Shown piece by piece: positions 3,634 through 23,403 of a stretch of DNA of 34,596 nucleotides; within the stretch, counting starts at the first letter, position 1, and each line of letters opens with the position of its first letter. The stretch comes from a virus (Duplodnaviria > Heunggongvirae > Uroviricota > Caudoviricetes): the IMG/VR virus record IMGVR_UViG_2657244943_000010, one strand, 5' to 3'. The position numbers and the translations under genes were made by a program. The notes under the pieces are model-generated. The model was not told where the DNA came from. It did no database searches and saw only the letters and a list, made by a program, of their open reading frames with translations.

Positions 3634-3837
3634 ATGAACAAAAAGACCTGGTTTCGCGCATACATGTGGGCGCTGGTATGCGTCCTCGTTTCTCTCATTC
3701 TGTATGCAGGACTACTCCCCCGAATGATTTCATCAGACAGCTCCTTCCTGGTATTGCTGGGCATTTTCATTGCCATGCTGTACCCGGCAGGCGTTGTTCG
3801 CCTTTTCAGTAAGTACATCAAGGAAATCAAACAATGA
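3634..3837 (+). CDS. Small two-TM membrane protein (67 aa)
   Basis: Two hydrophobic segments (WALVCVLVSLILYAGLL and FLVLLGIFIAMLYPAGVV); stop overlaps start of the SPFH gene (ATGA). Confidence 0.55.
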   Translation: MNKKTWFRAYMWALVCVLVSLILYAGLLPRMISSDSSFLVLLGIFIAMLYPAGVVRLFSKYIKEIKQ

Positions 3838-4664
3838 AGAAATTCAAACTCTTTCAGATTCTCCCGCTTTTTGCTGCCATTCTGCTGGTTGGTTGCGATC
3901 GCGTTGAGCCAGGTAATGTGGGCATCAAAGTCAACAAACTGGGCGACGACAAAGGCGTCGGTGAAGTGGTTGGCGTTGGACGCTACTGGACAGGCTGGAA
4001 TACAGAGGTTTACATCTTCCCAACCTTCAAACAAATGAAGACCTACGATGAGCCGTTCAGCTTTCAGATGAGTGACGGCACAACCATCGGCTATCACATC
4101 GGTGTGGCCTACAAGGTTGATCCATCCAAAGTTACTACAGTGTTTCAGACCTACCGCAAAGGCGTGGATGACATTACCGACACTGACCTGCGCCAGAAGA
4201 TCGCCGACGCACTCAACCGACTGGCCAGCAAAATGACCACCGATAAATTTATCGACGGTGGCAAGTCTGAACTGCTGGATTCAGCACTTAAAGACATTCA
4301 GGCAGAAATGACACCTATCGGCATTCAGGTAATGAGCCTCTCTTATGTCGGTAAACCGGAATACCCACCAACCGTTATCGACAGCATTAATGCCAAAGTC
4401 ACGGCAAACCAGAAAACTCTGCAACGCGAACAGGAAGTCAAGCAGCGCGAAGCAGAAGCCAACATGCTACGCGCAGAAGCAGCCGGACAGGCTGATGCCA
4501 TTCGCACAAAAGCCCAGGCTGAAGCCGACGCCATTCGTTTGCGCGGAGAAGCTCTGCGCCAGAACCCCGGCGTTATGGAGCTGGAAGCTATCAACAAATG
4601 GAACGGCACGCTGCCGCAATATATGACCAGTAATACCGCTGTTCCGTTTGTTCCGGTGAAGTAA
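3834..4664 (+). CDS. SPFH / band-7 (stomatin-prohibitin-like) domain lipoprotein
   Basis: 276 aa; N-terminal signal with lipobox LLVGC; central region reads like an SPFH fold; C-terminal Ala/Glu/Arg/Gln-rich coiled-coil tail typical of band-7 proteins. Confidence 0.75.
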   Translation: MKKFKLFQILPLFAAILLVGCDRVEPGNVGIKVNKLGDDKGVGEVVGVGRYWTGWNTEVYIFPTFKQMKTYDEPFSFQMSDGTTIGYHIGVAYKVDPSKVTTVFQTYRKGVDDITDTDLRQKIADALNRLASKMTTDKFIDGGKSELLDSALKDIQAEMTPIGIQVMSLSYVGKPEYPPTVIDSINAKVTANQKTLQREQEVKQREAEANMLRAEAAGQADAIRTKAQAEADAIRLRGEALRQNPGVMELEAINKWNGTLPQYMTSNTAVPFVPVK

Positions 4665-8605: not shown

Positions 8606-9565
8606 ATGAAAATTTGTATCGACGACGGCTCCACCAACATCAAGCTGGCATGGACTGAGAACGGCGAACGCCGCAACGCCATCAGCCCGAACAGTTTCAA
8701 GTCGGAATGGTCTGCGCCGTTCGGTGGCACGCAGCCCGCGAACTACATGCTTGATGGCGTGCGCTATGGTTTTGATCCGGTCAGCGATCGCTTTGTCCAG
8801 ACGACCGACACGCAATACCAGTACAGCGATGTGAATGTCATTGCCATTCATCATGCGCTGGTCAAATCAGGCATCACGCCACAGGAGGTGGATGTAGTTG
8901 TCACCCTACCACTGAGCGAGTATTTCGACACAAACGCACAGCCGGACATGGTCAACATCAACCGCAAAAAAGCGAACGTTATGCGCCCGGTGGAGTACCA
9001 GAACGGCGAGGCATTCACTATCCGTAACGTGCGGGTTATGCCTGAATCCATTCCGGCTGGCTTTAAAGCACTGGCTGACATGAGTCCGTTTGAATCCCTG
9101 CTGATTGTGGATTTGGGCGGAACCACGCTGGATGTGGCAAAGGTTCAGGGGCAACTGGCAGGTATCAGCCAGGTGTTTTGCGATCCACACGTAGGCGTTT
9201 CTCTGATGGCCGATGCCGTGCTGTCGGTGATGGCCACCAACGGTATGCGCACCAGTCACCACATCGCCAATACCATTATCGAACATCGCCACGATGAAGC
9301 CTGGCTGCGCCAGCACATCCACAATGACGCGCATTATGCCAGCCTGATGGCAGTTATTCGTGAAAAGGAGGAAACACTGAAACAACGCGTGATCCGTGCG
9401 CTGGCGGGTTTTTCGGGTTACGGGCGGGTGATGGTTGTAGGTGGAGGAGCGGAGATTGTGGCACCCGCTATCCGCGAAGCCTGCGGAGTTAATGCGACTT
9501 TCATCGCGGACGGGGTGCCACAGTTTGCTCTGGTTAATGGGCTGTACGCAATGGACAAGGAGTAA
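8606..9565 (+). CDS. parM: ParM-type actin-like partition ATPase
   Basis: 319 aa, AAGGAAAA RBS; N-terminus ICIDDGSTNIKLAW ... ISPNSFKSEW ... YQYSDVNVIAIHHALVKSGI closely parallels plasmid R1 ParM/StbA as I recall it. Confidence 0.85.
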   Translation: MKICIDDGSTNIKLAWTENGERRNAISPNSFKSEWSAPFGGTQPANYMLDGVRYGFDPVSDRFVQTTDTQYQYSDVNVIAIHHALVKSGITPQEVDVVVTLPLSEYFDTNAQPDMVNINRKKANVMRPVEYQNGEAFTIRNVRVMPESIPAGFKALADMSPFESLLIVDLGGTTLDVAKVQGQLAGISQVFCDPHVGVSLMADAVLSVMATNGMRTSHHIANTIIEHRHDEAWLRQHIHNDAHYASLMAVIREKEETLKQRVIRALAGFSGYGRVMVVGGGAEIVAPAIREACGVNATFIADGVPQFALVNGLYAMDKE

Positions 9566-9569
9566 ATCA

Positions 9570-9884
9570 ATGACGACACCAACCAGACGGATAAGTTTCT
9601 ATCTGAAGCCCGCCGTCGTCAAGAGCGAACGGGAGGCGTGCAGTTACCTCGACAGCCTGCCAGCCTCCGAACGCAGCCGCGCACAACGCGCGGCTTTTCT
9701 GGCTGGACTGGCTCTTATAAAACGCACCCCCGCGTTGGCGTATTCGCTGGCAGAATGGTCAGAAGACGAAATACGGATGCCACCGCTACCAGTACAGCCT
9801 GAAAAACCGGCGCAACCAGCAGCAGACAGCGCCCCCCATATGCAGCAGGTGAAAAAGAATATTCAGGCGTTTTTCCCGAAGTGA
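9570..9884 (+). CDS. parR: ParR-type centromere-binding adaptor
   Basis: 104 aa from ATG 9570 (AGGAG upstream); RRISFYLKPAVV ... YLDSLPASERSRAQRAAFLAGLAL parallels R1 ParR; 4 nt after parM stop. Confidence 0.75.
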   Translation: MTTPTRRISFYLKPAVVKSEREACSYLDSLPASERSRAQRAAFLAGLALIKRTPALAYSLAEWSEDEIRMPPLPVQPEKPAQPAADSAPHMQQVKKNIQAFFPK

Positions 9885-18409: not shown

Positions 18410-19558
18410 ATGACATGGCCATCTGTCACGATTGAACAGTACAACACATTCAGCAGTTCACCGGACGGCGTGGAAAATACGCTGCTGTTTGTGGGCAATG
18501 CACAAAACAACAAAGGTGAGGTTCTGCCGGTTAATGCCAACAGCGATCTGGATGAGCTACTGGGAAAGAACGCCAGCCCGCTGAAGAACTTCCTTCAGTC
18601 TGCACTGACCAATGCCGGACAGAATGCCTTTTTCTATGTTGCCGTTCTGCCGGAAGCCGGCAAAGGCAAAGAAGCAACGCCAGCCTGCCAGGTATGGCAG
18701 AACGCCATACTGGCGGCTCAGGAAACTGTTTCAGTTGAAGGCGTGGTGATCACCGAGCCGGTCAGCACGAAGGATGACATCAACGCCATACAGGCGTTAC
18801 GTCAGACCATCATCAATAAATATCAGCGCCGCATCTGGTTCATCCTGACCATCGCCGCCAACGACAACAGTAAAACCTGGGCGGAATACGTTGCCGAACT
18901 GACCGCACTACAGAAAGGCATTGCAGCCCCGCAGGTCATGCTGGTTCCGGAGATTTTTGGATTTGAACCGGGCGTTCTTGCCGGTCGCCTGTGTAACAGC
19001 GCCGTCACCATTGCTGACAGTCCGGCACGTGTGGCAACCGGGCCCCTGTCCGCACTGAAAACCACAGAACGCCCGAAAGACAGCACAGGGCAGGCAATTG
19101 ATCTCGACACTCTGCAGGCACTGGCAACCGCCCGCTACAGCGTGCCCATGTGGTATGCCGACTATGACGGCCTTTACTGGGCTGACGGTGTAACACTTGA
19201 AGTGGAAGGCGGGGACTACAACGTCATTGAGCATGTCCGCATTGCTGATAAGGTGGCGCGCCGCGTGCGGCTGATGGCCATCCCCAAGATTGCCGACCGC
19301 TCGCTGAACAGCACGCCGGGCAGCATTGCCGCACATGAAACGCTGTTTGCCCGCCCACTGCGTGCCATGGCGAAATCCATGCAAATTAACGGCATCACGT
19401 TTCCGGGCGAAGTGAAATCGCCCCGGAAAGGCGACGTGGTTATCACCTGGCAGGACGAAAAGACGGTCAGCATCAGCATTGTCGTCCGCCCTTACGCCTG
19501 CCCTAAAACCATCAAAGTGGGCATTCAGCTGGATAAATCTCTGGAGGAAAACGCATGA
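18410..19558 (+). CDS. Putative contractile tail sheath protein
   Basis: 382 aa from ATG 18410 (AGGAG upstream); position before tube, chaperone and tape measure; assignment positional. Confidence 0.5.
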   Translation: MTWPSVTIEQYNTFSSSPDGVENTLLFVGNAQNNKGEVLPVNANSDLDELLGKNASPLKNFLQSALTNAGQNAFFYVAVLPEAGKGKEATPACQVWQNAILAAQETVSVEGVVITEPVSTKDDINAIQALRQTIINKYQRRIWFILTIAANDNSKTWAEYVAELTALQKGIAAPQVMLVPEIFGFEPGVLAGRLCNSAVTIADSPARVATGPLSALKTTERPKDSTGQAIDLDTLQALATARYSVPMWYADYDGLYWADGVTLEVEGGDYNVIEHVRIADKVARRVRLMAIPKIADRSLNSTPGSIAAHETLFARPLRAMAKSMQINGITFPGEVKSPRKGDVVITWQDEKTVSISIVVRPYACPKTIKVGIQLDKSLEENA

Positions 19559-20010
19559 CGACCCGCATTAACGGCATGGCGTTTGACACTTTTATCGGTG
19601 GAACGGATATCCATGTGAAAAGCATCTCACTGGACATCAGCGATGAAAGCGCCGTTGCCAAAACCCGTGGCATCCCTGACGGTAAACTGCGCGGCCCTGT
19701 CAGTGCCGAAGGTGAAATCGAAATGAGTACCCGCAGCTTTAACCAGCTCGGGGAAGTGGCTGCTCAGGCGGGATCGTGGCGTGACCTGCCGCCAATGGAT
19801 TTTGTGTTTTACGCCAATACGGGAACCGAAGAAATCCGCGTTGAAGCCTTCGGTTGTGAGCTGATGCTTTCTGGCCTGTTAAGCATTGACACCGAGAGCG
19901 CAGATCTGACCACGCACAAAATCAAGTACGTGGTGGCAAGCCCTGACTTTGTGCGTATCAACGGCGTGCCCGTTCTCTCAGAGAACGACGTGCGCGGACT
20001 GATGGGGTGA
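19555..20010 (+). CDS. Putative tail tube protein
   Basis: 151 aa, ATGA-coupled to the sheath gene; assignment positional. Confidence 0.5.
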   Translation: MTTRINGMAFDTFIGGTDIHVKSISLDISDESAVAKTRGIPDGKLRGPVSAEGEIEMSTRSFNQLGEVAAQAGSWRDLPPMDFVFYANTGTEEIRVEAFGCELMLSGLLSIDTESADLTTHKIKYVVASPDFVRINGVPVLSENDVRGLMG

Positions 20011-20013
20011 ACC

Positions 20014-20310
20014 ATGCAGGAGCATGAGCGCACCATTATCACTCTGGGCATTCTGGGCGGAATCGCTGCCGCAAGTCGGGTGCTGGCTGGCGCAGAGCCG
20101 ATTACGTTGCGGTTGTTTGTGGGCCGAACCCTGCTGGGGAGCGCGCTGGGTGTTTCTGCCGCTGCCCTGCTGGTTCGCTACCCGAACCTTGACCCACTGG
20201 CCATTGCCGGCGCAGGCACCGCAATGGGCGTTGCCGGTTACCAGATTGTTGAAATCTTCCTGCGTCATATGCGCCGGAAGCTGGGCGAGAAAGAGAACAA
20301 AGAGGAGTAA
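20014..20310 (+). CDS. Putative holin
   Basis: 98 aa with hydrophobic segments (IITLGILGGIAAASRVL, TLLGSALGVSAAALLV, LAIAGAGTAMGVAGYQIV) and charged C-terminal tail; directly upstream of the endolysin. Confidence 0.5.
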   Translation: MQEHERTIITLGILGGIAAASRVLAGAEPITLRLFVGRTLLGSALGVSAAALLVRYPNLDPLAIAGAGTAMGVAGYQIVEIFLRHMRRKLGEKENKEE

Positions 20311-20315
20311 CAGCA

Positions 20316-20423
20316 ATGCTGTCCCGCAGGGAACAAAAAGCTGCCGCCATTGCCTGGAAAATTATCCGGGCACTGTGGTACTGGCTGCGCAAACCTCAGC
20401 AACCTCATAAGGAGCAAAAATGA
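20316..20423 (+). CDS. Small basic amphipathic peptide (35 aa) between holin and endolysin
   Basis: ATG 20316 with AGAGGAG 8 nt upstream; stop overlaps endolysin ATG; translation MLSRREQKAAAIAWKIIRALWYWLRKPQQPHKEQK. Confidence 0.3.
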   Translation: MLSRREQKAAAIAWKIIRALWYWLRKPQQPHKEQK

Positions 20424-20761
20424 AACTCTCCGATAAGCAACAACAATTTACCGTCATGATCGGAAAACTCATCCAGTTTGCCCATCAGCGCGGTTATGGC
20501 CTGACGTTCGGTGAGGCGTACCGCACGCCAGAACAGGCAAAACTCAACGCACAAAAGGGATCCGGCATTGCCAACAGCCTGCACTGCCAGCGGCTGGCCG
20601 TGGATTTTAATCTGTTTATTAACGGTGAATATCAGACCCGCACAGAGGCCTACCGCGAGCTGGGCGAGTACTGGGAATCCCTTGGTGGCGCATGGGGCGG
20701 TCGTTTTAAAAACCGCCCGGATGGCAATCATTTCAGCCTTGAGCACGACGGCGTGCGCTGA
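20420..20761 (+). CDS. Endolysin, M15-family zinc peptidase (L-alanyl-D-glutamate peptidase type)
   Basis: 113 aa; SLHCQRLAVD and DGNHFSLEH match the H-x6-D ... H zinc-ligand pattern of small phage M15 endolysins. Confidence 0.75.
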   Translation: MKLSDKQQQFTVMIGKLIQFAHQRGYGLTFGEAYRTPEQAKLNAQKGSGIANSLHCQRLAVDFNLFINGEYQTRTEAYRELGEYWESLGGAWGGRFKNRPDGNHFSLEHDGVR

Positions 20762-20767
20762 TTTTAC

Positions 20768-20811
20768 GCTTAATAAGCCTTCCTGCAGGCTTATTAAGCC
20801 CTCTTATTCTT
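20768..20811 (+). terminator. AT-rich perfect hairpin after endolysin
   Basis: GCTTAATAAGC (20768-20778) pairs with GCTTATTAAGC (20789-20799), extendable to 13 bp; T-rich tract follows. Confidence 0.4.
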
Positions 20812-20825
20812 GACTTTAAAAGGAA

Positions 20826-21119
20826 ATGATGATGAACGATAAAAACACCCAGACTACCGCAGAGAACACCATCACTTTACAGGTCGGCGAGCATGAACTG
20901 ACGTTTATCCCGACCGTAAAAGCCTACAACGACCTGCAGAACGACTTCATGCCGGATAACAAAATCGCGCCGCTGAAAAACTACCTGCGCCGTATCGTGA
21001 TTAAAGAGCACCGCGATCTGCTGAACCAGTTGCTGGAAAAACCAGGAATGCCGGCCAGCCTGGCAACAGCCGTGAATAACGAGTTTGTGCCGGAAGTGGA
21101 AATCACCGTAAAAAAATAA
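20826..21119 (+). CDS. Tail assembly chaperone (short, zero-frame product)
   Basis: 97 aa directly upstream of tape measure; ends in an A7 slippery run. Confidence 0.6.
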   Translation: MMMNDKNTQTTAENTITLQVGEHELTFIPTVKAYNDLQNDFMPDNKIAPLKNYLRRIVIKEHRDLLNQLLEKPGMPASLATAVNNEFVPEVEITVKK

Positions 21120-21307
21120 AAAGCCATCTGGGGGCCATTGATCGCCATGACCTTACCCGGATGCTGATCCTGCGCCGCCACTGGCTGCCCGGCGAGGATG
21201 ACTCGCCGCAGTCACTGGCTGCCGCCGTCTGGCTGGATAACCACTACTGGGAAAATATGAGCATCGCCGTCAATAACGGCATTATCCGTGCTTTTAAGGG
21301 ATCGTAA
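21110..21307 (+). other. Programmed -1 frameshift site and -1-frame extension of the tail chaperone
   Basis: Heptamer A_AAA_AAA at 21110-21116 spans the last zero-frame codons; the -1 frame stays open for about 63 codons (KKIKSHLGAIDRHDLTRMLILRRHWLPGEDD...AFKGS) to TAA 21305-21307, overlapping the tape-measure ATG. Confidence 0.6.
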
Positions 21308-23403
21308 TGTCACAACAGCGCCTTGAATTACTTCTTGAACTGACAGACCGCCTGACAAGGCCGTTGCGTGCAGCCGGGCGACAGGTTCAGGGATTTGCTG
21401 CAACAAGTCGGGGAGCCTTTCGGGACATTGCTACCGGAGGCGCTGCGCTCTGGGGAGTGGGTGCAGCCATTCAGGGGGCACTGATGCCAGCCATTGAAAT
21501 GGACAGGGCGCTCGGTGAGGTGAAATCACTGGGCGTCGCAGAGTCCGGATTGCGTAAACTCAGCCGCGCCGCCGTTGATTTCACTATGGAATACGGCGGG
21601 GCTGCGCAGGATTTTGTGCGTGCTTCTTACGACATCCAGTCAGCCATTGCCGGGTTAACTGACGATGAGCTGTCCCGCTTCACCACCGCATCAGCAACGG
21701 TGGCAGCAGCAACCAAATCCAGCAGCCAGACCATTACCGCCTACATGGGCACCATGTACGGCATCTTTAAAGACCAGGCTGATGCCATGGGAAAAAGCAA
21801 ATGGGTGGAGCAGGTCGCCGGGCAAACCGCCACCGCCGTGCAAATGTTTAAAACAACCGGCGATAACATGTCAGCAGCGTTCACCACGCTGGGTGCCAGT
21901 GCAAAAGCGGCCGGTATTGATGCGGCTGAACAGTTCGCCGTGCTGGGACAACTACAGGCCACCATGAGTGGCAGCGAGGCCGGGACAAAGTACAAGGCAT
22001 TTCTTGCCGCAGTAGGCAGCGCCCAGAAAAAGCTGGGGCTTAATTTCGTGAATAAAGACGGCACGATGAAAAGTGTTGTCGAGATCATGAAACTTATCAG
22101 GGGTAAATTTGGTGATCTGTCAAAAGTGGCTGATTCCGATTTGCTGAAAAGCGCCTTTGGCTCCGATGAAGCTGTGGCCATGATTAAATTACTCAATGCG
22201 GACATTGGCGGACTTGAAAAGAATATCGCCACGCTGGGCAATATCAAAGGTATGGATAAGGCTGTCGAAATGGCACAGGCCATGGCTGATCCATGGGAAC
22301 AGGCCGCTGCAATTATTAACGGCATTCGCATCGAAATTGGCACGCAGTTGCTGCCTGTTCTGTACCCGTTTATCCAGAAAAGCAACGAAGGCGGTAAATC
22401 CTTTGTTGCTTGGTTACGCCTGTATCCAAACATCACTCGCGCAATCGGCTTATTAAGCGCGGCACTTATTGGTGTTGCGGCGGTTGGCGCAACGGTCAAT
22501 GTCGTAATGGGGGTTGCGAAATTTATCTGGGTGGGATTACGCATGGTCTGGATGGCCGTCATCGCCCCACTGAAATTAATCGTTTTTCTGTATCGCACAA
22601 TGAGAGTGGTTATGCTTGCGCTCTGTGCTGCCGCCCGCATGGTAAGAGCAATATATCTGGCAATAAACATCGCCATGGGAGTGATGAATATTCGCGCCAG
22701 AGCACAACTGCTATTGATGGGCCTACAACGTGCCGGAATGCTCCTGCAGGCAGCAGCATTATCAGCCGTTTCTGTTGCCATGGGGATTTATTCCGCAGTC
22801 ACCAGCGGAGCCGCAATTGCAACACAATTACTTTTCAGCCCCATCACATTAATCATCCTGGCACTGGCTGCGCTGGGTGTGGGCATTTATTTCCTGATTA
22901 CCCGCTGGGATGAGATTAAAGCCGCGCTGATGGATACCGCCGCCTTTCAGTGGGTGGCTGAAATGGTCGGCAGTATGGGGGAATGGTTCGGCAATGCATG
23001 GAACACAATCCAGGACGGCTGGAATGCACTGGTTAACTATTTTTCCACGCATTCACCACTGGATGCCCTGAAGGATCTCGCGGGCGGCATCCTGAATATT
23101 TTCAGTAACCTCTGGGAACTGGTGAAACAGTCCTTCAGTGATTCATGGGGCTGGATTGTAGGCAAGCTCAACATGATCCCCGGCGTCAATATCGACACAC
23201 CGGAAAGCACAGGAAGTGGCGAAGGCTCCGTATTAACCGGCAGCAAAGCCATCAGTGCGGGACCGGGCGGCATTGCGGCAGAGATGCAGAACAACAGCGA
23301 AAACCAGACCACCATCGACAACTCCCGTCGTGTGGTTAACGTCAATGTGCAGGATCCATCCCCTGCCCGTCTTAACGAGTGGATGGAGCTGCATGCATAC
23401 TGA
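21307..23403 (+). CDS. Tail tape measure protein
   Basis: 698 aa; Ala/Gly-rich helical N-terminal half, hydrophobic middle segments, position after chaperone/frameshift. Confidence 0.85.
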   Translation: MSQQRLELLLELTDRLTRPLRAAGRQVQGFAATSRGAFRDIATGGAALWGVGAAIQGALMPAIEMDRALGEVKSLGVAESGLRKLSRAAVDFTMEYGGAAQDFVRASYDIQSAIAGLTDDELSRFTTASATVAAATKSSSQTITAYMGTMYGIFKDQADAMGKSKWVEQVAGQTATAVQMFKTTGDNMSAAFTTLGASAKAAGIDAAEQFAVLGQLQATMSGSEAGTKYKAFLAAVGSAQKKLGLNFVNKDGTMKSVVEIMKLIRGKFGDLSKVADSDLLKSAFGSDEAVAMIKLLNADIGGLEKNIATLGNIKGMDKAVEMAQAMADPWEQAAAIINGIRIEIGTQLLPVLYPFIQKSNEGGKSFVAWLRLYPNITRAIGLLSAALIGVAAVGATVNVVMGVAKFIWVGLRMVWMAVIAPLKLIVFLYRTMRVVMLALCAAARMVRAIYLAINIAMGVMNIRARAQLLLMGLQRAGMLLQAAALSAVSVAMGIYSAVTSGAAIATQLLFSPITLIILALAALGVGIYFLITRWDEIKAALMDTAAFQWVAEMVGSMGEWFGNAWNTIQDGWNALVNYFSTHSPLDALKDLAGGILNIFSNLWELVKQSFSDSWGWIVGKLNMIPGVNIDTPESTGSGEGSVLTGSKAISAGPGGIAAEMQNNSENQTTIDNSRRVVNVNVQDPSPARLNEWMELHAY

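Follow-up and report, generated by a model that had tools for sequence, protein, structure and literature searches.

About 13% of the phages of Gram-negative hosts lack a recognisable spanin, and in 2026 the means by which these get through the outer membrane still counted as an open question (Kongari et al. 2018; 2026 paper). In the literature that we searched, a single disruptin has been demonstrated experimentally, namely gp28 of phage phiKT, which is needed for outer-membrane disruption and by complementation rescues amber mutants of lambda Rz/Rz1 (Holt et al., bioRxiv 10.1101/515445; PMC12819732 cites the published version as Holt et al. 2022). According to the preprint, gp28 is a helical protein of 56 amino acids with a net charge of +7 and no localisation signal, is encoded between the endolysin gp27 and the holin gp29, resembles LL-37, and as a synthetic peptide is bactericidal from outside the cell. 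The only homologue given there is one nearly identical protein of the closely related phage PGT2, and its authors predicted unrelated disruptins for other phages that lack spanins; prediction of disruptins is still called an open problem in the 2026 paper. On the other side stand HP1, ESSI-2, K139 and phiO18P, all listed with two-component spanins (Kongari et al. 2018). Here we analyse the lysis cassette of IMG/VR record IMGVR_UViG_2657244943_000010, a stretch of 34,596 nucleotides (hereafter the window) that belongs to a P2/HP1-like (Peduoviridae) prophage integrated in Escherichia coli. A small open reading frame (ORF; 20316..20423, + strand) between the genes for its holin and its endolysin encodes a cationic, predicted-helical peptide of 35 residues, which we give about an even chance of being a new disruptin-type outer-membrane disruptor, unrelated to gp28 in sequence, that replaced a lost spanin pair at the base of its clade.

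The holin gene (20014..20310, +) encodes a protein of 98 residues, hydrophobic in three segments and charged in its C-terminal tail, which matches PF04550 Phage_holin_3_2 (E 5.5e-28; 97.7 bits against a Pfam gathering cutoff of 25) and the phrog_175 holins (E 1.2e-32). On the other side of the ORF, an M15 metallopeptidase endolysin of 113 residues without a signal sequence (20420..20761, +) is recognised by PF13539 Peptidase_M15_4 (E 3.2e-11; 44.1 bits against a cutoff of 25) and as a phrog_1768/465 endolysin, and its sequence contains the His/Asp/His ligands H55-x6-D62 and H104. The original prediction's account of a cassette in which a holin and an M15 endolysin of these lengths flank a 35-residue ORF agrees with both the coordinates and the profile matches, and the translation signals that it assigned to the ORF are present: a Shine-Dalgarno sequence AGGAG (20303..20307, +) lies within the final holin codons, 8 nucleotides 5' of the ATG, and the TGA of the ORF (20421-20423) overlaps the endolysin ATG (20420-20422) as ATGA. 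The Shine-Dalgarno sequence of the endolysin itself, AAGGAG (20409..20414, +), falls within the C-terminal Lys-Glu codons of the peptide, 5 nucleotides 5' of the endolysin ATG.

The peptide, MLSRREQKAAAIAWKIIRALWYWLRKPQQPHKEQK, has three Trp residues and, as predicted for a basic peptide, a net charge of +7. An AlphaFold2 model shows a single helix over residues 4-25 with a mean pLDDT (predicted local distance difference test) score of 76. It has no transmembrane domain (TMD), signal sequence or lipobox: there is no Cys, the hydrophobic stretch is broken by K15 and R18, and the TMD and lipobox scans do not flag it. The further claim that it is amphipathic finds moderate support, with a hydrophobic moment of 0.54 (p = 0.07 against shuffles). 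This moment is near those of melittin (0.55) and magainin (0.52) and below that of LL-37 (0.78); the peptide is also similar in length and net charge to such cationic helical, Trp/Arg-rich antimicrobial peptides and like them has interfacial Trp, but it would be produced, with no leader, within the very cell on which it acts. Against Pfam and PHROG it has no family match. Its description as unannotated is true of the RefSeq/PGAP annotation of E. coli EC42405, from which the ORF is omitted, and less so of GenBank and UniRef, where the exact peptide is entered as a hypothetical or uncharacterised protein; the exact sequence occurs on at least 1000 contigs.

Set beside phiKT, the window shows a small cationic peptide of the same kind (35 residues and +7 here, 56 residues and +7 in gp28), predicted to be helical, free of TMD, signal and lipobox, and encoded between holin and endolysin in a genome that has a cytoplasmic endolysin and neither a lipobox ORF nor spanins. 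The likeness extends to the holin, as phiKT gp29 also belongs to PF04550 (E 2.4e-9) and is 28% identical to the window holin (BLASTP E 1e-11). The peptide thus shares the features of the disruptin class, i.e. a size below 80 residues, a charge of at least +4, a predicted helix, the lack of signal, TMD and lipobox, a location in the lysis cassette and a spanin-less genome, and differs from it in lacking sequence homology to gp28. Further marks of the class, drawn from genetics and fractionation, are a need for the protein in disrupting the outer membrane, complementation of lambda Rz/Rz1 amber mutants and association with membranes. The two systems also differ in gene order, which is endolysin-peptide-holin in phiKT and holin-peptide-endolysin here, and in their setting, a virulent podovirus with a T4-lysozyme-type endolysin in the one case and a temperate prophage of myovirus type whose endolysin is an M15 peptidase in the other. 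The window peptide is shorter than gp28, Trp-rich and predicted to form one helix, and its function is proposed from comparison, whereas that of gp28 was shown by complementation. In GenBank JN882298.1 (17103-17273) the validated disruptin gp28 is labelled 'hypothetical OmpW family transmembrane protein'.

The lysis genes of the prophage lie between the tail tube and tail assembly chaperone genes, the same site as in Haemophilus phage HP1. In HP1, Cronobacter phage ESSI-2, Salmonella phage SI7 and Yersinia phage vB_YenM_324 this site has the order tube-holin-endolysin-i-spanin/o-spanin-chaperone, and in the latter three, whose ORFs we inspected, the holin gene abuts or overlaps the endolysin gene. 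The window resembles these HP1-type cassettes in location and holin family and in the M15 endolysin, which is 75-80% identical to those of SI7, ESSI-2 and vB_YenM_324, the three phages that this comparison covered. It differs from them in having an ORF between holin and endolysin, where they have nothing, and in having a 64-nucleotide spacer where all four phages carry an overlapped i-/o-spanin pair after the endolysin, which bears out the missing spanin as a point of interest. In the RefSeq record of ESSI-2 (NC_047854.1, 3696-4823) the holin coding sequence (3696-3989) is missing, the endolysin start is placed late and no coding sequence is named o-spanin.

To survey this site we collected 78 genome loci anchored on the endolysin and 24 viral and seven metagenome contigs anchored on the tail tube, the latter serving as the anchor that defines the clade; contigs with tube homologues of intermediate identity were also taken, and a second round of scans of the viral and metagenome data, based on an alignment of tubes, brought in few further lineages. 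The scripted survey comprised the 108 loci that have a tube, an M15 endolysin and a chaperone. Sixty-five of these form a spanin-bearing group, with tube proteins at most 59% identical to that of the window, a slot of 475-942 nucleotides after the endolysin that contains a lipobox o-spanin ORF, and a holin-endolysin gap of -14 to +5 nucleotides, save in two outliers with a partial holin match. The other major group, 42 loci from at least eight divergent lineages whose tubes are at least 63% identical to the window tube, lacks the spanin slot, with 26-86 nucleotides between endolysin and chaperone, and has instead a holin-endolysin spacer of 81-118 nucleotides which encodes an ORF of 28-41 residues with a net charge of +5 to +9. 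The hosts of the peptide-bearing clade include E. coli, E. albertii, Citrobacter, Yersinia and Plesiomonas. The one exception in spacer length in this group is a Plesiomonas locus, L118, with 290 nucleotides after the endolysin. There an ORF of 87 residues (3697-3960, Plesiomonas shigelloides) was considered as a spanin and rejected, its product being acidic and soluble and of no recognised family; this locus also has the cationic peptide. Peptide and spanin occur together in none of the 108 loci, and a single locus, L032, has neither, so that the two are mutually exclusive in 107 of the 108. Between the spanin-bearing and peptide-bearing clades (L002-L082 against the window), the endolysins are 65-81% identical and the tube, holin and chaperone 31-59%; this excess of identity in the endolysin points to constraint of unusual strength or else to a module that has been exchanged horizontally.

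The original prediction had noted the lack of a spanin near the cassette, and this absence extends to the entire window; the search for a pair elsewhere in the prophage that it proposed likewise found none. Two lipobox scans of the whole window, with all start codons and on both strands, gave only antisense or out-of-frame artefacts and no o-spanin; a scan for ORFs with an N-terminal TMD gave only starts internal to the tape-measure gene and antisense frames of known genes, and no i-spanin; neither was there a candidate for a unimolecular spanin of the T1 gp11 type, which combines a lipobox with a TMD at the C-terminus. In PHROG scans, 20 ORFs from outside the cassette, the majority without an assigned function, matched no spanin or Rz family, and the PGAP annotation of the remaining prophage lists no spanin. 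Two lipobox frames deserve mention. The first (20682-20813, +; MVAHGAVVLKTARMAIISALSTTAC or KTARMAIISALSTTAC, each followed by ADF...) resembles a lipoprotein signal and runs through the hairpin downstream of the endolysin, begins with TTG or GTG, would have a mature part of just 18-19 residues and has no i-spanin partner. It is the +1 frame of the conserved C-terminus of the endolysin, and since the same frame occurs in L108 and also in ESSI-2 ('...TAIISALNITGC'), which has a genuine o-spanin further downstream, we rejected it as a by-product of that C-terminus. The second, a 'lipobox' ORF at 9441-9884, extends the reading frame of the partition gene that follows parM in the upstream direction, overlapping parM out of frame, and was likewise rejected.

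In the eight lineages of the peptide-bearing group the ORF has diverged deeply. Beside the E. coli peptide of the window stand MTGKKASPGILSGMRQFAVKVWQLLRSLQKLRNSMNGKTRP of L108/L114, MNKHQLHRLLRLAYWLWQCISKNRKKGGF of Yersinia L107/L116, MNKLKLTNLIKLVHAILNIWRWLKNDKKGSHHDTL and MSAEKWRRRLEGVTRLLNFISAVWRKHNEQKDKRE of Plesiomonas L118 and L122, MTDKKRQKVTDIVNIIRLISWAWRALRNKNATRESK of L121, MTSPQQRKARITALFRFIGWVWRALRSSAPNQQPKKDRK of L124 and MKLTDRQQKRAAIAWKILRTLWRWLCKPQKTSKDKNETL of L127. In the four divergent lineages that were aligned, identity to the window peptide falls as low as 15-24%; holin identity goes down to 55% over the divergence of the group. All eight nevertheless keep a hydrophobic helix between a basic N-terminus and a basic tail, and in most the helix closes with a WxW motif; the peptide stop overlaps the endolysin start in six lineages and lies 13-14 nucleotides inside the endolysin gene in the other two (L118 and L127). 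A profile search over 1.84 billion representatives gave one further true homologue, a distant one (P0086, E 2e-7), accompanied by a frameshifted allele, P0089, and by two repeat proteins that were spurious; among the versions above, the L127 peptide is a statistically significant homologue by this search (E 2e-7). The close variants of the peptide (P0001-P0008) have indels that keep the frame, which holds for all three indel variants. When the spacers were shuffled, such an ORF arose by chance with a frequency of 0.06-0.16 per lineage, i.e. a product of about 7e-9 across the eight, a value that assumes independence and hence overstates the significance, since the lineages share ancestry. That eight divergent lineages all keep the frame open, its product cationic and its end at or across the endolysin start is more than chance. 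The ratio of nonsynonymous to synonymous polymorphism (pN/pS), computed from 26 haplotypes of the close group in E. coli, Citrobacter and E. albertii, is 0.24 for the peptide, as against 0.04 for the holin, 0.08 for the endolysin, 0.09 for the tube and 0.13 for the chaperone. The ORF is therefore under purifying selection, much weaker than that on its neighbours, which fits selection on physicochemical character over exact sequence and also fits partial dispensability.

Several lines of evidence favour a disruptor: spanins are absent, the slot that they occupy in relatives is empty here, and 42 loci with the peptide stand against 65 with spanins in a mutually exclusive pattern; the ORF persists through deep divergence with a pN/pS below 1 and in-frame indels; and the features of the peptide match those of gp28, with the same flanking gene types and the same holin family. 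The original prediction had offered three functions, antiholin, lysis regulator and outer-membrane disruptor, without choosing among them. The sequence comparisons favour the last, because of the exclusivity of peptide and spanin and because the cassette mirrors that of phiKT down to the holin family, and leave the first two as rivals, which supports the original interpretation in part. As a mechanism we envisage that tube, holin, peptide and endolysin would be transcribed together in a late operon, with the peptide translated from its own AGGAG and building up in the cytoplasm or on the inner membrane. Triggering of the class-I PF04550 holin would then give the M15 endolysin, and with it the peptide, access to the periplasm, where the endolysin would remove the murein and the peptide, by means of its basic residues and the WxW motif as an interfacial element, might bind anionic outer-membrane lipids or lipopolysaccharide; the outer membrane so weakened would be burst by turgor. 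The broader proposal, that a second disruptin family defined by a short basic helix ending in WxW replaced Rz/Rz1-type spanins at the base of the whole temperate HP1-like Peduoviridae clade, has in our estimate slightly less than an even chance of being correct.

A number of observations weigh against the interpretation as a disruptor. Two relatives have neither component. The cassette of L032, a contig of 2.8 kb, lies at 1037-1997 and has overlapping holin and M15 genes and 60 nucleotides from the endolysin to the chaperone, with no peptide and no spanin. In a prophage of Edwardsiella ictaluri (L119/L120, 2960-4136; tube 66% identical), which lies outside the M15 set, a GH108/PG_binding_3 endolysin directly follows a PF04550 holin and the chaperone comes next, again with neither a small ORF nor spanins. 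These loci imply that spanin loss may be tolerated without a substitute. Moreover, the peptide was gained on the same single branch on which the spanins were lost, which makes this one coincidence and not repeated co-variation. The pN/pS of the peptide is 2-6 times that of the neighbouring genes, a sign of weak constraint, and its segregating sites are spread evenly over the codon positions (9/10/11). Truncated alleles occur in E. coli prophages, with stops at codon 34 (L087, L092, L098) and at codon 28 (one viral-contig locus, probably L103), and the frameshifted cluster P0089 is in circulation. Part of the C-terminal conservation comes from the endolysin Shine-Dalgarno sequence that lies there. 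The amphipathicity is barely above that of shuffles (p range 0.05-0.23), and gp28 and the peptide family have no sequence similarity (hhalign probability 0.1%). Finally, we infer all three of the peptide's translation, destination and outer-membrane activity. As for the label of L032, 'Bacillales MAG' (metagenome-assembled genome), its cassette is Enterobacterales-like and of the HP1 type, so that the label looks like mis-binning, and those of L010 (Bacillota MAG) and L071 (Saccharimonadales MAG) look likewise mis-binned.

The existence of such loci also lends weight to a different account, in which spanin loss need not demand a replacement, the clade lives without an outer-membrane disruptor, and the peptide is a lysis-timing factor at the inner membrane, be it an antiholin, a holin co-factor or a trigger. 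Its target would then be the cytoplasmic side of the membrane or the charged C-terminal tail of the holin, and its binding would advance or delay hole formation. The ORF directly follows the holin gene and is tightly coupled to both neighbours, and cationic helical peptides can depolarise membranes, depolarisation being a trigger of holins according to discussion in the literature. A precedent for accessory lysis proteins at the holin step is Lcc6 of Shewanella phage LambdaSo, a 65-residue transmembrane protein that acts there in the presence of spanins (bioRxiv 10.1101/2024.01.23.576932). Lcc6 is, like the peptide, small and previously unrecognised, and it is required beyond holin and endolysin; the window peptide differs from it in lacking a TMD and in being found only where spanins are absent. 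Against this account, the 65 spanin-bearing relatives have holins of the same family that work with no such ORF, and the appearance of the ORF exactly where the spanins vanish would go unexplained. Nor do peptide and holin have the hallmarks of an antiholin system: inspection of the holin gene found no second in-frame start and no dual-start motif, hence no dual-start holin product, and the peptide neither shares the TMDs of the holin nor belongs to a known antiholin family. The antiholins lambda S107 and P2 LysA bear TMDs, unlike the window peptide. On balance we regard this account, a novel soluble antiholin included, as unlikely.

The weak constraint suggests another reading, that the ORF is a functionless linker left by recombination of a holin module with an M15 endolysin module in a partly lysis-defective prophage, kept open only for carrying the endolysin ribosome-binding site and keeping translation flowing from holin to endolysin. 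The pN/pS above that of the neighbours, the lack of an excess of third-position polymorphism, and the circulating frameshifted and prematurely stopped alleles would all fit, as would the identity of the endolysin across clades (65-81%), well above that of tube, holin and chaperone (40-55%) and compatible with module exchange. The chance of 6-16% per lineage of finding such an ORF is not tiny, and the A/G-rich composition of the spacer favours Lys and Arg codons. Yet the ORF is open and strongly cationic in eight of eight lineages, several of which keep a recognisable hydrophobic helix and WxW core; the pN/pS is below 1; and the premature stops all lie after the helix. Coupling needs no linker either, as holin and endolysin overlap directly in the spanin-bearing relatives, and the endolysin has a strong Shine-Dalgarno sequence of its own. 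We consider such a linker, in its origin as in its role, rather improbable. Very unlikely is a membrane-active role for another purpose, as an antimicrobial released at lysis against competitors or as an exclusion factor expressed by the prophage: the composition is that of an antimicrobial peptide, synthetic gp28 has LL-37-like bactericidal activity from outside, and fast evolution of the hypervariable residue 22 (Y/H/R/C) and other sites is common in antimicrobial peptides, but the ORF is embedded in a late lysis cassette, coupled to the endolysin and with no promoter-like site nearby, the dose from one cell would be minute, and the loss of spanins would be unaccounted for.

Regarding the remaining parts of the cassette, its upstream boundary is the tail tube gene (19555..20010, +) of the HP1 Orf24 family (PF10772 E 1.1e-50; phrog_1182), and its downstream boundary the tail assembly chaperone gene (20826..21119, +; PF10963 E 1.6e-26). 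For the endolysin, no relative in the PDB lies within reach of sequence comparison. The hairpin that the original prediction called strong (20768..20799, +) does have a perfect 13-bp stem with a 6-nucleotide loop, followed by the T-rich run CCTCTTATTCTT, and a folding energy of -21 kcal/mol (z = -3.5 against shuffles); it sits in the spacer between endolysin and chaperone, where relatives have their spanin genes. Sharing of the hairpin is limited to the nearest sublineages: a similar one is found in L108 (~4154-4185) and a different, GC-rich one in Yersinia L116 (~3695-3711), and the deeper lineages L121, L122, L124 and L118 have none at that position. This terminator-like element looks like a weak intrinsic terminator or an RNA-stabilising structure, might instead be an attenuator or the scar of a deletion, and is not essential to the argument. 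Between the chaperone and the tape measure lies an ORF of 48 residues (21161-21307, +; DUF6890, phrog_7050), kept in most relatives, which may be the frameshift-extension region of the chaperone, analogous to E/E' of P2.

The region 19500-21400 is 99.8% identical to the chromosome of E. coli EC42405 and is present in 42 of 5426 complete E. coli genomes. In the PGAP annotation of EC42405 the prophage begins with an integrase, regulators, a replication endonuclease and ParM, continues with the head genes (portal, terminase, scaffold, P2-family capsid and head completion) and then the tail genes, in which the holin and M15 peptidase are flanked by the sheath and tube on one side and by the tail chaperone, tape measure, baseplate and fibres on the other; outside the window it carries a YafO toxin, a nuclease and a methylase fragment as cargo. 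Besides its integrase this integrated prophage encodes, right after the replication endonuclease gene, a plasmid segregation ATPase of the ParM type together with a partition/stability protein (8606-9884, +). Neither a megablast search of phages with the lysis region nor a tblastn search of them with the peptide gave a match, and no isolated phage has a tube protein more than 56% identical to that of the window, which leaves prophages and metagenomes as the only known sources of the clade.

If the peptide is indeed a disruptor, disruptins would be a recurrent solution, found also in temperate myoviruses, and not a one-off of a single podovirus, and an empty spanin slot combined with a small cationic ORF that separates holin from endolysin would serve as a rule for finding more. 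The E. coli genomes that carry the region would make the peptide directly accessible to the established lambda Rz/Rz1 complementation assay, and its short, Trp-rich, membrane-active scaffold would be of possible antimicrobial interest. As spanins are still in use in sister clades whose holins are of the same family and whose endolysin is 80% identical, the two kinds of cassette would form a natural and genetically tractable pair of systems in which to ask how a peptide of 35 residues does the job of a membrane-fusion machine.

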